A DNA stretch of 64,000 nucleotides from Alphaproteobacteria bacterium (GTDB taxonomy: Bacteria; Pseudomonadota; Alphaproteobacteria; JAJTHO01; CANGYM01). Under the pieces are notes generated by a model that searched no databases, was not told where the DNA came from, and saw nothing but the letters and a program-made list of their open reading frames with translations. The translations under genes and the position numbers were made by a program. Shown in pieces: positions 2,220 to 32,572 of the stretch (positions are counted from its first letter, which is position 1; each line of letters starts with the position of its first letter). The stretch covers positions 126,396 through 190,395 of the forward strand of contig JBILMD010000001.1 of NCBI GenBank assembly GCA_044375675.1. Direction: 5' to 3'.

Positions 2220-3608
2220 TTAAAAATGAATAACACGACCCATGGCGTCCAGCGTGGCCTCGTGCATCATTTCCGATAACGTGGGGTGGGGGAATACGGT
2301 ATGCGCCAAATCCAGCTCTGTCAACTCCCCATTCATGGCAATGACAAAGCCCTGAATCAGCTCGGTGACTTCTGCCCCGATCAGGTGGGCCCCCAGCAAT
2401 TCACCCGTTTTGGCATCATAGATGGTTTTGATCAACCCTTCCGGCTCGCCCAGCGCAATGGCTTTGCCGTTGCCCATAAAGGGAAAACGGCCCACTTTCA
2501 ACGTATGGCCCGCCTCTTTGGCCTTGGCCTCGGACAGGCCCACACTGGCGACCTGCGGCATGGTATAGGTACATCCGGGAATTTTGGCGCGGTCCATGGG
2601 GTGAACATCGGGCTGGCCTGCCAGATTTTCCACACAAACCATGGCCTCGTGCGAAGCCTTGTGCGCCAACCACGGGCCCGCGGTGACATCCCCGATGGCG
2701 TAAACGCCGGCCTCGTCCGTTTTCAAATACCCGTCGGTGACGATGTGGCCCCGATCCAGACGAATTTTGGTTTTGTCCAAACCGATGGTTTCCGTGTTCG
2801 GCACAATGCCCACCGCCATAATGACGCGATCCACGGTCAGGGATTCTGTTTTTCCCGCTTTTTCAAAGGTCAGCGTGACATTATCCTTACCCTTATCCAA
2901 TTTGGTCAGCTTGGCGCCCACGTGGATGGTCATGCCCTGTTTTTCAAAGGTTTTTTTGGCCAGACCGGAAATCTCTGCATCCTCAGCCGGCAGGATACGG
3001 TCCATAGCCTCAATCACTGTAACCTTGGATCCCAAGGTGTTGTAAAAACTGGCAAACTCCATCCCAATGGCGCCGGATCCCACAATGGCGAGGGTTTTGG
3101 GCAGGGTGTCCTGAACCATGGCCTCGCGGTAGGTCAAAACCAATCGTCCATCCGGTTCAAACCCCGTCAACACGCGGGCCCGGGCGCCGGTGGCCAGAAT
3201 GATATGCTTCGCCGTGAGGGTTTGTTCTTTATCACCCTTCACCAAAACTTTTCCCCCGCCCAGCAGGGACCCATGGCCCGTGATGACCTCAACCTTATTT
3301 TTTTTCAGCAAATGGGCGATGCCGCCCGATAATTGTTTTGCCACGCCGCGGGATCGGGCCACGATGGCGGGCATATCAACCTTCACGTCGGCAACGCTCA
3401 GGCCGTAATCCTTGGCATGTTTGATGTGATGATACATTTCCGCGGAACGCAACAAAGCCTTCGTCGGGATGCACCCCCAGTTCAAACAAATGCCCCCCAG
3501 ATGGGTGGATTCCACCACCGCGGTTTTCAAACCCAGCTGATTGGCCCGAATGGCCGCCACATAGCCCCCCGGGCCACCCCCGATAACAATCACATCATAG
3601 TTACTCAT
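2220..3608 (-). CDS. lpdA: Dihydrolipoyl dehydrogenase (E3). True start taken at the internal Met that begins [16 protein letters not shown].
   Basis: FAD-binding GGGPGGY motif, redox-active [10 protein letters not shown] disulfide and HAHPT interface motif. ATG verified at 3608. Confidence 0.95.
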
Positions 3609-3682
3609 ACCATGCCTTTTCTTTTTGCGTGTTCGTGCCCCGTACCTTGCCACGGTTTTTCAGGGGAGGGAAGGGGGAACAA

Positions 3683-4036
3683 TCACTCTGATTTTCCTTG
3701 CAGCAAAACCTGTAGCTGTTCCAACAAAGCGGGGATGTGCAACAGAGCAACACTTAAAACAACCTCGTGGGCGATATCATCATAACCATGGGCCAGATGA
3801 TTCCTCATGCTGATGATTTTTTGCCAAGGAATTTGGGGATTTTGCTCTCTCAAGGGGGCACTGACGCGGGTGGCGGCTTCACCAAAAACATGAATTAAAC
3901 GTTGTAAAATCAATGCCGCATCAGAATCATCTTCAATACCATCCTTTCGGTAACGTTCCAATGTTTCCCCTATACGACGGCCAAAGCGGATCATATCATA
4001 CAGGGCGACGCGATCATCCCGCTGGCTTTCCCTCAT
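3683..4036 (-). CDS. hepT: HepT-like HEPN toxin (DUF86), pair 1
   Basis: R-x4-HxY HEPN motif (RNHLAHGY). Overlaps the upstream NTase gene by 4 nt. Confidence 0.8.
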   Translation of the reverse strand: MRESQRDDRVALYDMIRFGRRIGETLERYRKDGIEDDSDAALILQRLIHVFGEAATRVSAPLREQNPQIPWQKIISMRNHLAHGYDDIAHEVVLSVALLHIPALLEQLQVLLQGKSE

Positions 4037-4332
4037 AAAAACCGCACATCCTTCATAACATTTTCCTCTAAATAGGGGTTTTTGGCGATTTTTTGACGAA
4101 AAGAAAACCGCACAGGCAGGCCCGTCCGCAGGCTGAGGTCCTGCTCGGCATCCAAAAGATCAAAAAACGTAAACGGGGCGGTATAATCTATCAGGATATC
4201 CAAATCACTCCGCTCATCCGCATCGCCGCGGGCATAGCTGCCAAAGACGCCCATTTCTGTGATGGGGTATTTGGCCATCAAATCGCGTTTGGCGTCCTGC
4301 AAAATGGGCAAAAGGTCGTTGAGTGTTTTCAT
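4033..4332 (-). CDS. mntA: MntA-like minimal nucleotidyltransferase antitoxin, pair 1
   Basis: GS-x9-RG...D-x-D NTase fold motif (GVFGSYARGDADERSDLDIL). Confidence 0.8.
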   Translation of the reverse strand: MKTLNDLLPILQDAKRDLMAKYPITEMGVFGSYARGDADERSDLDILIDYTAPFTFFDLLDAEQDLSLRTGLPVRFSFRQKIAKNPYLEENVMKDVRFL

Positions 4333-4345
4333 GGGTATGCTGTTG

Positions 4346-4702
4346 TTACCAATTCAGGCCTTTGTCTTTCAAAAACATTTCTAATGCTGCAATCATGGGC
4401 GGCAGATGATCGATGACAATACGCCATACCAAAGGATTTTCAATTTCATCATAATCATGGGCAATCACGTTGCGGCATCCAATGATTTGAACCCACGGAA
4501 TATCCGGCAAGAGGGTTTTGGTTGGACCATCAACCTTTTTCGCCGCTTCACCAATAATTTGTACCGCGTGAAGCAAGGCAAATCGCCGAAGCTGATCTTC
4601 GAAATACGTGTCTTGTGTATACGGGGCAGCAAAACCCACCGCAGCGCGGGCATGATCCAACATATCCACCAGATATTGCGTGCTATCGTTCTGCCCCCTC
4701 AT
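4346..4702 (-). CDS. hepT: HepT-like HEPN toxin (DUF86), pair 2. Divergent from pair 1.
   Basis: RNVIAHDY HEPN motif. 4-nt overlap with the upstream NTase gene. Confidence 0.8.
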   Translation of the reverse strand: MRGQNDSTQYLVDMLDHARAAVGFAAPYTQDTYFEDQLRRFALLHAVQIIGEAAKKVDGPTKTLLPDIPWVQIIGCRNVIAHDYDEIENPLVWRIVIDHLPPMIAALEMFLKDKGLNW

Positions 4703-4998
4703 AAATAAACAGCCTCCTGCAAAATGCGGGGGGCCAGAAAGCGTTTTAGGCGGTTTTTGTTGACCAAATCCACGGTGGGAATGCCTGTTTTGTTCTGTAA
4801 ATACAGCTGAATATCCACGATATCAAACAGGGAAAAACCATGGGTATCCATCACATACAGAATATCCAAATCACTCCGCTCATCCGCATCACCGCGGGCG
4901 TAGCTGCCAAAGACGCCCATTTCTGTGATGGGGTATTTGGCCATCAAATCGCGTTTGGCGTCCTGCAAAATGGGCAAAAGGTCGTTGAGTGTTTTCAT
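4699..4998 (-). CDS. mntA: MntA-like nucleotidyltransferase antitoxin, pair 2. Start taken at the internal Met MKTLNDLL. The annotated N-terminal extension merely translates a repeat element.
   Basis: First 47 residues identical to pair-1 MntA, then divergent. NTase motif present. ATG verified at 4998. Confidence 0.75.
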   Translation of the reverse strand: MKTLNDLLPILQDAKRDLMAKYPITEMGVFGSYARGDADERSDLDILYVMDTHGFSLFDIVDIQLYLQNKTGIPTVDLVNKNRLKRFLAPRILQEAVYL

Positions 4999-5555
4999 GG
5001 GTATGCTGCTGACCAACCGTCCCCCAACTTTGCCACGGTTTGGGGGGGCAGGGAAGGGGATTTTTTCAACACAACCCTTTTTCGCCTCCACCCCAAAAAA
5101 ATTTCATAAAATTCTTGACGCATATATATATATATATTAAATTAAATGTTCACCCATAGCATTGCCACAATCCCGTGGATAAGATGCTTGGGCCTCACAA
5201 AGGTGAACCATGACCAACCGTCAACCGACGATGCCTGCCATAATCGCTCAGGCGATTTCCGGACAATTCGTTCGACTTCCCATCAAAATCAGAATTTTTC
5301 TGATTCTTGGCGGATCTGCAGCTTTGCTGCTTCCCCCAGCTTTGTATTTTAACAAAGCTATAATCCAATGGATGGCACCTATCGCCGAATCTCGACGTAT
5401 CTGCACCCAGAATGGGGGAAGAAACGCTATGGGACCAGATGAATTTCTCCATCCCCTATGGCTAAAATCTAGCGGATGGTGCAACTTCTCCAGCATCACT
5501 GGCCGCAATGCTGCGTGGGAATGGGATGTGAAAAACTGGAAGCCCTGAGACCACA

Positions 5556-5601: not shown

Positions 5602-8600
5602 TTACTCTTCAAACGAGGGTAGGGGCTTTCTGGTTTCTTGGGCCTGCAGGTAATCGCTTTGTTTCAGCTCGATGTTCAATCCCAAGGCGCGGATTTCTTT
5701 GATCAATACGTTAAAGGACTCAGGGATACCGGTTTGGAACGTGGCATCGCCCTTGACGATGGATTCGTAAACCTTGGTCCGGCCGGCCACGTCGTCGGAT
5801 TTGATGGTCAGCATTTCCTGCAGAGTATAGGCGGCGCCGTAGGCTTGCAGGGCCCAGACCTCCATCTCCCCAAAACGCTGGCCCCCGAATTGGGCCTTTC
5901 CACCCAGCGGCTGCTGCGTCACCAAACTGTACGGCCCAATGGACCGCGCGTGAATTTTATCATCCACCAAATGGTGCAGTTTCAGCATGTACATATAGCC
6001 CACGGTTACGGGACGATCGAACCTTTCCCCCGTGCGGCCATCGTACAGCATCACCTGACCGGATCCATTCAGGCCCGCTTTTTCCAGCATCTCAACAATC
6101 TCGGCTTCTTTCGCGCCATCGAAAACCGGCGTGGCCATGGGCACACCCTTTTTCAGGTTGTGGCAGAGTTCCTTCAGGTCATCCCCATTCATGGCGTCGA
6201 TTTCGCCCTGCGTTTCGGTATCGGGGTACAGGGTTTTTAGGTGCGCTTTGACCTCTTTCTGCCCCTTGTCCTTATCCAGAGACGCAATCATCTGCGCCAC
6301 CTGACGGCCCAAACCGCCTGAGGCCCAGCTGAGGTGGGTTTCCAAAATCTGGCCCACGTTCATACGCGAGGGAACCCCCAGCGGGTTTAACACGATATCC
6401 ACCTGCGTGCCGTCCTCAAGAAACGGCATGTCCTCCAGCGGCATGATGCGGGACACAACCCCTTTGTTCCCGTGACGACCGGCCATTTTGTCCCCAGGTT
6501 GGATTTTGCGCTTCACGGCGACAAAGACCTTAATCATCTTCATCACGCCCGGTTGCAAATCATCCCCGCGCTGCAGTTTGTCGACCTTATCGTTAAATCT
6601 GGCGTTGATTTCGCGCAGGCTGGCTTCAAATTCCTGATTCAGGGTGGCGATGCGGTCCATGACCACGGCATCCTGAATCACAATTTTGGACCATTGGTTT
6701 TTGGGCATGGCATCCAGCGCGGCAGCATCCAAAGCCTGTCCGCGTTTGGCGCCTGTGGCTTTTTCCACAACCTGCCCCGCCAACCAAGAGGCCAGACGGT
6801 CATAATAGCTGGTTTCAATGATCCGGCGCTGCGTATCCCGCTCCCGCGCCAGGGCATCAATGCCGGCTTGCTCCAGCGCCACGGCCCGCTCGTCCTTGTC
6901 AATGCCGGTGCGGGAGAAAATCCGCACCTCAACCACCGTCCCCGTCACCCCGGGCGGCAGGCGCAGGGATGTGTCGCGCACATCGCTGGCTTTTTCCCCG
7001 AAAATGGATCGCAGCAGTTTTTCTTCGGGTGTGGATGGGGTTTCCGCCTTGGGCGTCACTTTTCCAACCAAGATATCCCCGGGCTTCACTTCCGCCCCGA
7101 CATACACAATACCGGCTTCATCCAGATTGCGCAGGGCCTCTTCGCCCACATCCGGAACATCGCGGGTGATGTCTTCCTGACCCAGCTTGGTATCGCGGGC
7201 CATGACCTCGAACTCTTCGATGTGAATGGATGTGAAAACATCATCGCGCACAATGCGCTCGGATAGCAGAATGGAATCCTCGAAGTTATACCCATTCCAC
7301 GGCATGAACGCACACAACACGTTGCGTCCCAAGGCCAATTCGCCCAAATCAGTGGACGGTCCATCGGCGATGATGTCACCTTTTTTGATGCCATCGCCCA
7401 CCTTCACCACCGGTTTCTGGTTGATGCAGGTGTCTTGGTTGGATCGCTGGAATTTCCGCAGGTTGTAGATGTCTACCCCAACGCCCGTGGCGCCGTCGTC
7501 TGTTTTCAAAACAATACGCTCTGCATCCACACGGTCCACGATCCCATCGCGGCGGGCCACAACAACCACACCGGAATCACGGGCCACAACGGCCTCCATG
7601 CCTGTCCCCACCAAGGGGGCCTCGGACCGCAGCAACGGCACGGCCTGACGCTGCATGTTGGATCCCATCAGGGCGCGGTTGGCATCGTCATTTTCCAAAA
7701 ACGGAATCAGCGACGCCGCCACAGACACCAGCTGCTTTGGTGAAACGTCAATGTAATCAATGTCTTCACGGCGGGCCAAAATGAACTCACCGGCTTTGCG
7801 GCAGGTGATCAGCTCGTCGGCAAAACCGCCCTGATCATTCAGGGCCGCGTTGGACTGGGCAATGGTGTAACGGCTTTCTTCCAGCGCCGACAGGTAATCC
7901 ACAACAAGGGATACCTTGCCGTCAATGACTTTGCGGTAAGGGCTTTCGATGAACCCATAGCGATTGATGCGCGAAAAGGTCGCCAAAGAGTTAATCAGAC
8001 CGATGTTCGGCCCCTCTGGCGTTTCAATGGGACAAATCCGGCCGTAATGGGTGGGGTGAACGTCCCGAACCTCGAACCACGCCCGCTCCCGCGTTAATCC
8101 ACCAGGGCCCAAGGCCGAAAGACGGCGTTTATGGGTAATTTCCGACAAAGGATTGGTCTGGTCCATAAACTGGGACAACTGCGAGGATCCAAAAAACTCC
8201 TTCACCGCCGCCACAACAGGCTTGGCATTCACCAGATCATGGGGCATGGCTGTTTCCAGCTCCACCGCGCCCATGCGCTCTTTAATGGCCCGCTCCATCC
8301 GCAGCAAACCCAAACGGTACTGATTTTCAATCAGCTCGCCCACCGAACGCACACGACGGTTGCCCAAATGGTCAATATCATCCACTTCGCCGCGGCCATC
8401 TTTCAGATTGATGATGGTGCGAACAATTTCAACAATATCCTCTTTCTCCAAAACCCGAACGGTGTCCGGCGCATTCAGACCCAAACGGGCATTCAGCTTC
8501 ACACGACCCACGGCGGAGAGATCATAGCGCTCTTCATCGAAAAACAGGCTGTTGAACAGGGCTTCTGCGGCCTCATATGTGGGGGGCTCGCCTGGGCGCA

Positions 8601-9792
8601 TGACGCGGTAAATGTCTGCCAACGCCTCTTCGCGGCAATAGTTTTTATCGGCCATCACCGTGTTCAAAATGTGGGGGCCATATTTAATATAGTCGATGTC
8701 CAGCAGGAAAAGGTCCTTGAGTCCTTTTTCGGCCACCAATTCCAACACAGAGGCATCCACCTCCTGACCCGCATCGGCCAGAACAATCCCCGTGTTTTCA
8801 TCAATGATATCCAGCGCCAGAAACCCACCGATCAATCCTTCTGGGCTGACGAAGATGGCGGAAAAGTTTTCCTTCTCCAGCTCTTTCATCAGGCGCGGCG
8901 TCATTTTGGTGCCGGCGGGCAGGCGAACTTCACCCGTTTTGGCGTCCACCAGATCATGAATCAACTTCACCCCGCGCCATTTTTCAGGCACGAAGGACGT
9001 CTGCCATCCGCCCTTGCAAACGGTGTAGTGCGTGTGGGTATAAAAGGTGTTAAGGATATCCAGCGCCGACAGTCCCTGCGCCTCGTAAGGCGCCAAAGGA
9101 CCCTGAGCCCGCTTTTTCGCCGTAGCTTCATTATCCAAACACATCAAAAACGTTGTCACCGGCAATTTACGGCGGCGATCAATACGCACATACAAAATGT
9201 CTTTGGCATCAAATTCAAAATCCAGCCACGACCCGCGGTAGGGGATCACACGGGCATTGTAAAGATATTTTCCCGACGCATGGGATTTCCCATTGTCATG
9301 ATCAAAAAACACACCAGGGGATCGGTGCATCTGCGACACAATCACCCGCTCGGTCCCGTTCACCACAAACGTCCCGTTTTCCGTCATCAGGGGAATGTCC
9401 CCGACGTAAACCTCTTGTTCCTTAATGTCGCGGATGGAGCGGACCCCTGTGTCCTCATCCAAATCCCACACCACCAGACGCAGAGTCAAACGCAGGGGGC
9501 ACGCAAAGGTAATCCCGCGCTGCTGACATTCCTCAACATCATATTTGGGCGCGTCAAAGTCATACGACACATATTCCAGCTGCGCCCGATTGGCATAATC
9601 CGCGATGGGAAAAATGGACTGAAACACCTCGTGCAGGCCGACCCGCAAACGCTCGGCGTGGGGAATATCCATCTGCAGAAAATGGGCACACGAATTCCGC
9701 TGCACCTCAATCAAGTTCGGCATGTCCACAACTTGGGGGATCTTTCCAAAACTCTTACGAAGACGTTTGCGCGAAGTGAACGAAGCAGCCAT
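5602..9792 (-). CDS. rpoB: DNA-directed RNA polymerase beta subunit
   Basis: 1396-aa product with N-terminus [19 protein letters not shown] and conserved RpoB blocks throughout. ATG at 9792 preferred over the GTG at 9804. Confidence 0.97.
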
Positions 9793-9962
9793 ACGGGTAA
9801 ACACTCTCTAAAAATCACAACAAAGAGGGAAGGGGGGACAGGCCCAAACAGATCCAAAAAAAGAAAAACGCATAGAACCCAAAGGGCACGCCTGTCAAAA
9901 CGATGATACGACACACGTTATGACACAGTCGCGCCCTTTGGGCAACACGTTTTAATGGCCGT

Positions 9963-27657: not shown

Positions 27658-27727
27658 TTTTTTTTCCCAAAACACAAAAAAATGTGACAAATGGCACGGC
27701 ACGGCACGGCACGGCATAATGGGAGGG
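27658..27727 (+). promoter_or_regulatory. Repeat cassette copy 1: T-run + CCCAAAACACAAAAAAATGTGACAAATG + (GGCAC)4 + GGCATAATGGG
   Basis: Read directly. Contains a TGTGAC -35-like or CRP-half-site-like element and a CATAAT -10-like element separated by the pentamer microsatellite. Confidence 0.5.
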
Positions 27728-30995: not shown

Positions 30996-31073
30996 TTTTT
31001 TTTCCAAAAACACAAAAAAATGTGACAAATGGCACGGCACGGCACGGCACGGCACGGCACGGCATAATGGGGG
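30996..31073 (+). promoter_or_regulatory. Repeat cassette copy 2 with (GGCAC)6
   Basis: Same cassette as copy 1. The pentamer occupies 31031-31060. Confidence 0.5.
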
Positions 31074-31996: not shown

Positions 31997-32078
31997 TTTT
32001 TTTCCCAAAACACAAAAAAATGTGACAAATGGCACGGCACGGCACGGCACGGCACGGCACGGCACGGCATAATGGGGG
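31997..32078 (+). promoter_or_regulatory. Repeat cassette copy 3 with (GGCAC)7
   Basis: Same cassette. The pentamer occupies 32031-32065. Lies in the divergent region between the vapD-partner gene and a small plus-strand ORF. Confidence 0.5.
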
Positions 32079-32460: not shown

Positions 32461-32486
32461 GGGGGCCGTTGGCCCCCCTTTTTTTT
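32461..32486 (+). terminator. Intrinsic terminator GGGGGCC-GTT-GGCCCCC + T8
   Basis: Perfect 7-bp GC stem, 3-nt loop and a T8 run. Third of three consecutive hairpins after ORF 32113-32358. Confidence 0.55.
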
Positions 32487-32527
32487 CCCAAAACACAAAA
32501 AAATGTGACAAATGGCACGGCACGGGG
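32479..32527 (+). repeat. Repeat cassette copy 4: truncated, (GGCAC)2, no CATAAT. Fused to the GGGGCCTCTCC module.
   Basis: T8 + CCCAAAACACAAAAAAATGTGACAAATGGCACGGCACGGGGCCTCTCC. Confidence 0.6.
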
Positions 32528-32537
32528 CCTCTCCTTC

Positions 32538-32572
32538 CCTGTCACCTGTCACCCGTCACCTGTCACCTGTCC
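32538..32572 (+). repeat. Heptanucleotide array (CCTGTCA/CTGTCAC)x5, imperfect, abutting the rplY stop
   Basis: cctgtca cctgtca cccgtca cctgtca cctgtcc. One base different from the argB array unit CTGTTAC. Confidence 0.85.

Follow-up and report, generated by a model that had tools for sequence, protein, structure and literature searches.

Why two neighbouring toxin–antitoxin (TA) modules that are otherwise far diverged should begin with almost the same 154 nt is the question raised by a locus on contig JBILMD010000001.1 of an Alphaproteobacteria bacterium (assembly GCA_044375675.1), of which a stretch of 64,000 nt (positions 126,396 to 190,395, hereafter the window) was analysed. On the minus strand the order of transcription is rpoB, a spacer of ~590 nt, mntA2, hepT2, mntA1, hepT1, lpdA and greA, and the shared segment, repeat R, spans the 5′ end of each mntA gene. 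The reading favoured here, with a probability of roughly 0.78 for its two parts jointly, is that two class I HEPN/MNT (HepT/MntA, type VII) modules, diverged long ago, lie side by side at the locus, and that R is a tract in which gene conversion and crossover recur but are confined to the catalytic N-terminal half of the antitoxin. The four genes and the two copies of R are as follows:

4858-5011, minus strand: upstream copy of repeat R, comprising a 13-nt leader and codons 1-47 of mntA2.
4699-4998, minus strand: mntA2, a predicted minimal nucleotidyltransferase antitoxin of 99 aa with a 'type 2' C-terminal half (PF01909, E 8.6e-12).
4346-4702, minus strand: hepT2, a predicted HepT-like RNase toxin of 118 aa (PF01934, E 4.1e-19).
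4192-4345, minus strand: downstream copy of repeat R, comprising a 13-nt leader and codons 1-47 of mntA1, and starting directly after the stop codon of hepT2.
4033-4332, minus strand: mntA1, a predicted minimal nucleotidyltransferase antitoxin of 99 aa with a 'type 1' C-terminal half (PF01909, E 7.4e-14).
3683-4036, minus strand: hepT1, a predicted HepT-like RNase toxin of 117 aa (PF01934, E 9.6e-17).

The two copies of R are 666 nt apart and differ at four of their 154 positions (4195/4861, 4225/4891, 4234/4900 and 4343/5009). The last of these lies in the 13-nt leader, while the three coding differences are all synonymous, and the first 47 residues of MntA1 and MntA2 are the same. An initial annotation of the locus had found only two substitutions between 4197-4340 and 4863-5006, and these are exactly 4225/4891 and 4234/4900, the full repeat being slightly longer; its statement that the nucleotidyltransferase core lies within the identical residues is also correct. 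The longest perfect run between the copies, taken from the mismatch positions, is 108 nt (4235-4342), and a run of this length is ample for RecA-dependent recombination.

Beyond R the similarity stops abruptly. Nucleotide identity drops from ~98% to ~54% right after codon 47, which is near the level given by global alignment of unrelated sequence, so that the identity does not extend across whole genes. In the C-terminal halves of the two antitoxins only 12 of 52 aligned residues are identical (~23%). The two toxins share 32% identity and are still recognisably homologous, so the earlier description of complete divergence past the repeat is slightly overstated. An exhaustive search found no other protein cluster with an N-terminal segment more than 70% identical to the 47 residues of R, and the segment therefore appears confined to a small clade; used as a query it gave a single match in an indexed protein search, and a pattern scan of metagenomes returned two contigs only.

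A sister species has the same architecture. It is represented by two of the loci or contigs compared (given L-numbers), L110, which carries the 3′ end of hepT2, R, X1, a short motif and lpdA, and L107, with the motif, R, X2 and part of hepT2, where X1 and X2 are the unique parts that follow R in modules 1 and 2. The paralogous R copies are identical at 138 of 141 positions in the window (97.9%) and at 141 of 142 in the sister species (99.3%), but orthologous copies of the two species are only 85–87% identical. The unique parts behave as expected of ordinary orthologues (X1, 88%; X2, 86%), with X1 and X2 at 54% to each other. Both sister-species copies have a 1-nt insertion and the replacements K21R and R41Q. 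Paralogues are thus more alike than orthologues, which is the pattern that defines concerted evolution.

Population data point the same way. Among 34 complete R copies from 21 independent metagenome contigs, 12 sites are polymorphic, five of which segregate in both X2-attached and X1-attached copies, and no fixed difference separates the two positions, the phasing of these copies resting on short-read assemblies. Paralogues on the same contig differ at 1–6 of 141 sites.

These comparisons bear most directly on a one-off module shuffling, in which a foreign cassette of MntA C-terminal half and HepT was grafted onto the 5′ end of a resident mntA, or an X-R unit was inserted by one crossover, the likeness of the copies then reflecting recency and no ongoing exchange. 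Such an event would leave the sharp break in identity that is seen, and across organisms the N-terminal halves attached to type-1 and type-2 C-terminal halves do not cluster by type. The type-2 C-terminal half also has outgroups with proportionate N- and C-terminal identities (P0023, 69%/57%; P0027, 60%/52%) and type 1 has none, a hint of an older chimeric (mosaic) origin of type 1. An old chimeric origin is, however, compatible with later conversion, and after a single old event paralogues should have diverged no less than orthologues. Instead, the array is present in two species, R differs by ~14% between them and by 0.7–2% within them, the sister-species indel is in both of its copies, R copies group by species and not by position, and polymorphisms are common to both positions. 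A single old chimeric event would not produce this pattern, which calls for at least one homogenisation in each lineage after the species split; shuffling without later exchange is considered improbable.

Could R instead be kept identical by selection, acting on nucleotides with a function of their own (in translation initiation, in an RNA structure within R or as the target of a regulator) or through extreme constraint on the catalytic peptide? The untranslated leader is part of R, the same peptide is encoded by 31 of the 34 population copies, and within this MntA clade conservation is highest in the N-terminal half, all of which would suit this explanation. Single-copy homologues found elsewhere (type 1 in L100 and L106, type 2 in L104) argue against it: their N-terminal segments encode nearly the same peptide, yet share 72–79% nucleotide identity, with 10–20 synonymous codon changes among 39 codons compared. 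Because of these synonymous differences, protein constraint is insufficient to account for the near-identity of R. Between the window and the sister copy in L107, 8–9 codons differ synonymously, against three between the window paralogues. The ~14% divergence of orthologous copies and the 12 polymorphic sites also speak against selection on the nucleotides themselves, and the R RNA folds in an ordinary manner (z = -0.95) and matches no Rfam family. A structured RNA was rejected both for R and for the leaders with the motif described below (z = +0.51 and +0.11); the only Rfam match was a sub-threshold hit to pntA in an AT-rich spacer, and was dismissed. Selection as the sole cause is considered very unlikely.

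Recurrent conversion and crossover at R would also be expected to leave structural variants, and the rpoB-to-lpdA interval is indeed variable among strains. The variants found in this interval were:

mntA2-hepT2-mntA1, with 61 nt in place of hepT1: L003, L005, L007, L008, L009 and L010.
mntA1 alone: L001 and L006.
mntA2-hepT2, then the first 72 nt of R and a REP-like element: L016 and L018.
The first 72 nt of R only: L022.
mntA2 with a truncated hepT2: L020.
R-X2-R-X2, with the second X2 truncated: L011.

The junctions of the natural variants fall inside R. In L001 and L006 the upstream flank and R are joined to X1 and module 2 is gone, which is the expected product of a crossover within R, and L016 differs from L022 by exactly one R-to-R unit. 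Exact matches to the proteins were found in 26 (HepT1), 48 (MntA1) and 40 (HepT2) collection blocks, so that hepT1 appears to be lost frequently while mntA1 is retained. The comparison of related genomes, which the initial annotation had proposed, shows that copy number varies among strains, and the type-1 and type-2 C-terminal halves each go with their own kind of HepT (see below). Its central proposal, of recombination or gene conversion at a direct repeat in place of a plain duplication, is upheld by the identity break at codon 47/48, by the separate homogenisation in two species and by the junctions in R.

In the mechanism envisaged, homologous recombination between the mntA 5′ ends would repeatedly homogenise the leader and the first 47 codons and would end where the sequences grow too different. 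As a crossover site, R would at the same time allow modules to be deleted or rearranged among strains.

Other sequences are found at the ends of truncated modules. A REP-like element, CCCCTCTCCCGCGTGCGGGGGAGGGTTAGGGAGGGGG, and its relatives occur at the exact truncation points of mntA1, hepT1 or hepT2 in other strains and species (L016, 2170-2260; L022, 3440-3530; L020, 7812-7850; L107, 545-590; L106, 2130-2253). The element is absent from the window and takes the place of module 1 in some strains. In the hepT1-less variant L003 (6300-6364), mntA1 is followed by ATGAGGGGGCAGTAA, which corresponds to the first 12 nt of hepT2, not hepT1, and then by a stop codon. This hints that the hepT1 deletion arose by recombination at the TTTATGAGGG junction common to both modules. 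That the hepT2/R and mntA1/hepT junctions arose through microhomology (TTGGT and TTTATGAGGG) is no more than a suggestion.

That short-read assemblers collapsed or mixed reads from more different sequences or strains is the least probable explanation of all, for although R at 154 nt is about one read length, contigs frequently end at R, and L011 could be a chimeric path through it, the two-copy structure, the 666-nt spacing and the copy-specific differences are seen again in JGI, ENA, Logan and NCBI assemblies made independently, an assembler would not merge copies that differ by 14%, and the single contig L110 spans unique flank, R and unique flank. The complete four-gene array is likewise found in independent JGI, ENA and Logan assemblies (L002, L004, L112, L113, L117 and L119), and is therefore not an assembly artefact of the window. 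Exact-protein look-ups and a scan of genomes representing species assign the locus to an uncultured alphaproteobacterium of fresh water, the matching metagenome-assembled genomes (MAGs) being from Lake Mendota and other lakes.

The assignment of the modules to a family follows Yao et al. (PMC7641770), who recognise class I HEPN/MNT systems by neighbouring PF01934 and PF01909 genes, an RX4HXY motif in the toxin and a GSX10DXD motif in the antitoxin. HEPN/MNT is described there as probably the most abundant TA family, and the authors show polyadenylylation of the HepT motif tyrosine by MntA (PMC7641770). In the window, PF01909 and PF01934 genes are adjacent in both modules and all four proteins score above the Pfam gathering thresholds. 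The GSX10DXD motif, GSYARGDADERSDLD, occupies residues 31-45 of both MntA1 and MntA2 and lies wholly within R. The RX4HXY motif, which combines the RNase site and the acceptor tyrosine, is RNHLAHGY at residues 78-85 of HepT1 and RNVIAHDY at residues 77-84 of HepT2. An AlphaFold2 model of MntA1 (pLDDT 94.3) has the minimal nucleotidyltransferase fold, and in Foldseek comparisons it superposes on 1WOT with a TM score of 0.79, on MntA of S. oneidensis (7BXO_E) with 0.71, and on the short MNT of L. pneumophila (8XEO chains A/B and 8XEH) with 0.67–0.68, each at a probability of 1.00. For MntA2 the nearest solved sequence is 1WOT (E 5.5e-9), and a phmmer search with HepT2 gave no match to any PDB chain. 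By analogy with the family, the HepT proteins would be toxic RNases, and the GSX10DXD centre of each MntA would AMPylate the RX4HXY tyrosine of its own HepT, so holding the toxin inactive.

The position at which R ends may explain why the exchange is limited to one half of the gene. In the MntA1 model the end of R falls inside beta2, two residues past the DxD, so R is predicted to encode alpha1, beta1, the GS loop and the metal-binding aspartates of beta2, and the variable half would comprise a helix at 56-70 (alpha2), a strand at 74-78 (beta3) and the C-terminal helices. For the S. oneidensis and A. flos-aquae systems, alpha4 at the MNT C-terminus is reported as required to bind and modify the cognate HEPN, and in the short MNT of L. 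pneumophila it is alpha2 and the alpha2-beta3 loop that touch HEPN (PMC11586414). We infer that R specifies a partner-independent catalytic half and that residues 48-99 are the probable partner-binding half. Exchange would be possible only where the genes are already similar, in the conserved catalytic half, and would be tolerated only where recognition of the cognate toxin is undisturbed; the second half of MntA and its HepT would then escape homogenisation and stay distinct.

Comparison of the toxins agrees with such a division. HepT1 is 74% identical to the HepT partner of the type-1 MntA P0006 in L100, and HepT2 is 75% identical to the HepT that accompanies a type-2 MntA in a MAG of Holosporales (L104), against 29–34% between types, which is consistent with co-inheritance of the type-specific MntA C-terminal half and HepT. 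The locus is a natural chimera in which identical catalytic halves are joined to different second halves beside different toxins, and it predicts that partner recognition resides in residues 48-99. It bears on how adjacent paralogous HEPN/MNT pairs stay insulated from each other, and the lake metagenomes provide a population record in which a short homogenised intragenic repeat would drive gain and loss of TA modules. A more far-reaching idea, that R serves as a recombination handle by which the partner-specific half of an antitoxin and its toxin are gained, lost or exchanged between strains as a single cassette, is considered unlikely. If true, the locus would be a type VII TA counterpart of the cassette arrays of contact-dependent growth inhibition (CDI) and Rhs systems, and a natural mapping experiment placing the partner specificity of MntA in residues 48-99.

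Several points weigh against recurrent conversion at R between two class I modules. The population data all come from short-read metagenome assemblies, in which a 154-nt repeat can be mis-phased, and some of the shared polymorphisms, as well as the arrangement in L011, could be assembly chimeras. The two copies of the sister species were taken from separate assemblies and not from a single genome. The data do not separate non-reciprocal conversion from repeated unequal crossover or replacement between strains. The HepT-contacting elements are placed in the variable half (alpha2 of L. pneumophila corresponding to helix 56-70) by fold order, not by residue-level superposition. Lastly, the proteins do not reach equivalog level in NCBIfam (NF047751 and NF047752; HepT_toxin and MntA_antitoxin), scoring 27–44 bits against cut-offs of 60, and for this reason the four are regarded as members of the family and not as close equivalents of the tested proteins.

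The array is bracketed by two copies of a short motif:

5021-5059, minus strand: copy upstream of mntA2, CCCCTTCCCTGCCCCCCCAAACCGTGGCAAAGTTGGGGG, with the layout TTCCCT, 16-17 nt, CAAAGT.
3638-3676 (annotated to 3678), minus strand: copy between hepT1 and lpdA, CCCCCTTCCCTCCCCTGAAAAACCGTGGCAAGGTACGGGG.

The copies are 79% identical over 39 nt. A degenerate pattern of 31 nt (26 fixed positions) matches only these two sites in the 64-kb window and gave no match in 100 shuffles. The similarity had been noticed in the initial annotation, which took it for a promoter or operator carried along with the duplicated block. The motif is real and promoter-like, but the second part of that proposal does not hold. 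Since mntA1 lacks the motif and the array as a whole is flanked by its two copies, the motif lies outside the duplicated block; ahead of lpdA it is also conserved in relatives where another gene precedes lpdA and a TA module is absent (L021, L023, L024 and L025). The edge of the lpdA motif (window 3678/3676/3675) is where matches to all structural variants and to related species pick up again. In more distant relatives the motif was not seen upstream of lpdA. Related elements precede type-1 mntA genes whose surroundings are unrelated (L100 and L106) and a membrane-protein gene in L025, and in L014 a copy follows hepT1 and faces a convergent gene.

In the relatives the motif consists of TTCCCT, 16 nt ending in AAAACCGTG, and then TAAAGT, TATTAT or TATAGT. 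The window copies read GCAAGG and GCAAAG at the second box, and neither is called by a simple sigma-70 consensus scan. A promoter-like element is the best reading of the motif, though an unproven one. Sigma-54 and EcfG readings were rejected on spacing, as judged by eye; so were a hairpin in the mntA2 copy, which is broken in L005 and L021, and a genome-wide repeat or general promoter consensus, there being just two copies in 64 kb.

The lpdA copy differs between species. At window 3644-3658 it reads GTGGCAAGGT in the window's species and GTGTAAAGT in five relatives (L021, L023, L024, L025 and L110), and its 3′ half in the window's species (GGCAAGGTACGGGG) is closer to the mntA2 copy than to the lpdA copies of other species. 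This suggests that exchange has occurred between the two motif copies as well, and that the -10-like box before lpdA is weaker. In one related species (L014, 7020-7120, compared with L021, 760-840) the rpoB-TA array is separated from lpdA: after the array come a motif copy of its own and a convergent gene of 332 aa, and lpdA, with its motif, stands beside unrelated genes. This indicates a rearrangement with its breakpoint at or near the motif.

The surroundings of the array in the window comprise:

5602-9804, minus strand: rpoB, the upstream neighbour.
5089-5150, no strand: an AT-rich stretch between the array and a divergent variable gene, a candidate divergent-promoter site.
2220-3611, minus strand: lpdA (dihydrolipoyl dehydrogenase), the downstream neighbour, outside the TA array, assigned from its open reading frame (ORF) and the Pfam families of its orthologues.

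The start of mntA2 is placed at the ATG at 4998, not at the GTG at 5091 given in the ORF list, as homologues begin MKTL. Within each mntA/hepT pair the genes overlap by 4 nt (ATGA), and 13 nt separate the hepT2 stop codon from the mntA1 start, in agreement with the spacing noted earlier. This close packing fits a single operon of four genes, plausibly read from the region upstream of mntA2. A consensus scan called a plus-strand promoter-like site in the AT-rich spacer (5115-5143), but promoter-like and terminator-like sites were in no excess over shuffled sequence.

Two further loci near the array vary among strains. Between rpoB and the array a gene on the plus strand (5210-5548) is hypervariable, with genes at the same position in L002, L003, L007, L011, L014 and L016. 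The products are 112–162 aa in length, with an N-terminal hydrophobic stretch and a loosely common C-x3-GG ... (G)WC pattern; they have no Pfam match, and most alleles are not alignable to one another. Window 5215-5550 had no match in the other strains compared. The other, a second presence/absence polymorphism besides that of the array, is a Methyltransf_21 gene of 312 aa, located between greA and a CBS-domain gene in L001, L002, L016 and others (window site ~1632-1731) and absent from the window and other strains.

Elsewhere in the window, a conserved A/T-rich sequence of 34 nt, TTTTTTTCCCAAAACACAAAAAAATGTGACAAAT, occurs four times (27659-27726, 30997-31064, 31997-32064 and 32480-32547), and after each copy comes a run of (GGCAC)n that varies in length (4.8, 6.8, 7.8 and about 2 units). 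The arrangement resembles a leader or promoter present in several copies and joined to a simple-sequence tract whose length can change.

How does the locus compare with systems already described? With the class I HEPN/MNT systems of type VII (S. oneidensis SO_3166/SO_3165, PMC7641770; L. pneumophila HEPN-MNT, PMC11586414) it shares the order of mntA then hepT, the overlapping stop and start codons, the PF01909 and PF01934 families and both motifs. At 99 aa, MntA1 matches the short MNT of L. pneumophila in size, and its model superposes on solved MntA/MNT chains (TM 0.67–0.71). In sequence it is only distantly related to the tested systems, and its modules stand head to tail with a homogenised antitoxin 5′ half in common, an arrangement of which no description was found in the literature searched.

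Polymorphic-toxin arrays (CDI cdiA-CT/cdiI, Rhs and the meningococcal tpsA 3′ cassettes; PMC3848433) also have a conserved 5′ stretch followed by a variable C-terminal region and its matching partner gene, and recombination in the conserved stretch alters the cassette present. In the window, by contrast, what varies is half of an antitoxin together with a toxin, where those arrays vary a toxin tip and an immunity gene, and the genes of both units are complete, start codons included, instead of being orphans that lack a promoter. The many cassettes of such arrays are also lacking, as only two C-terminal types were found on this N-terminal segment.

Partial gene conversion between tandem bacterial paralogues is a general phenomenon, as in the hotspots of M. 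tuberculosis (PMC13061034), and its concerted evolution shares with the present locus a likeness that is greater within genomes than between species, sharp tract edges, common polymorphisms and copy-number products of crossover. The locus differs in that the tract makes up about one fifth of each otherwise saturated module and ends at the boundary between the catalytic and the probable partner-binding halves. The system thus belongs to a known family and the evolutionary process is one already known, of which the locus is a clean example.

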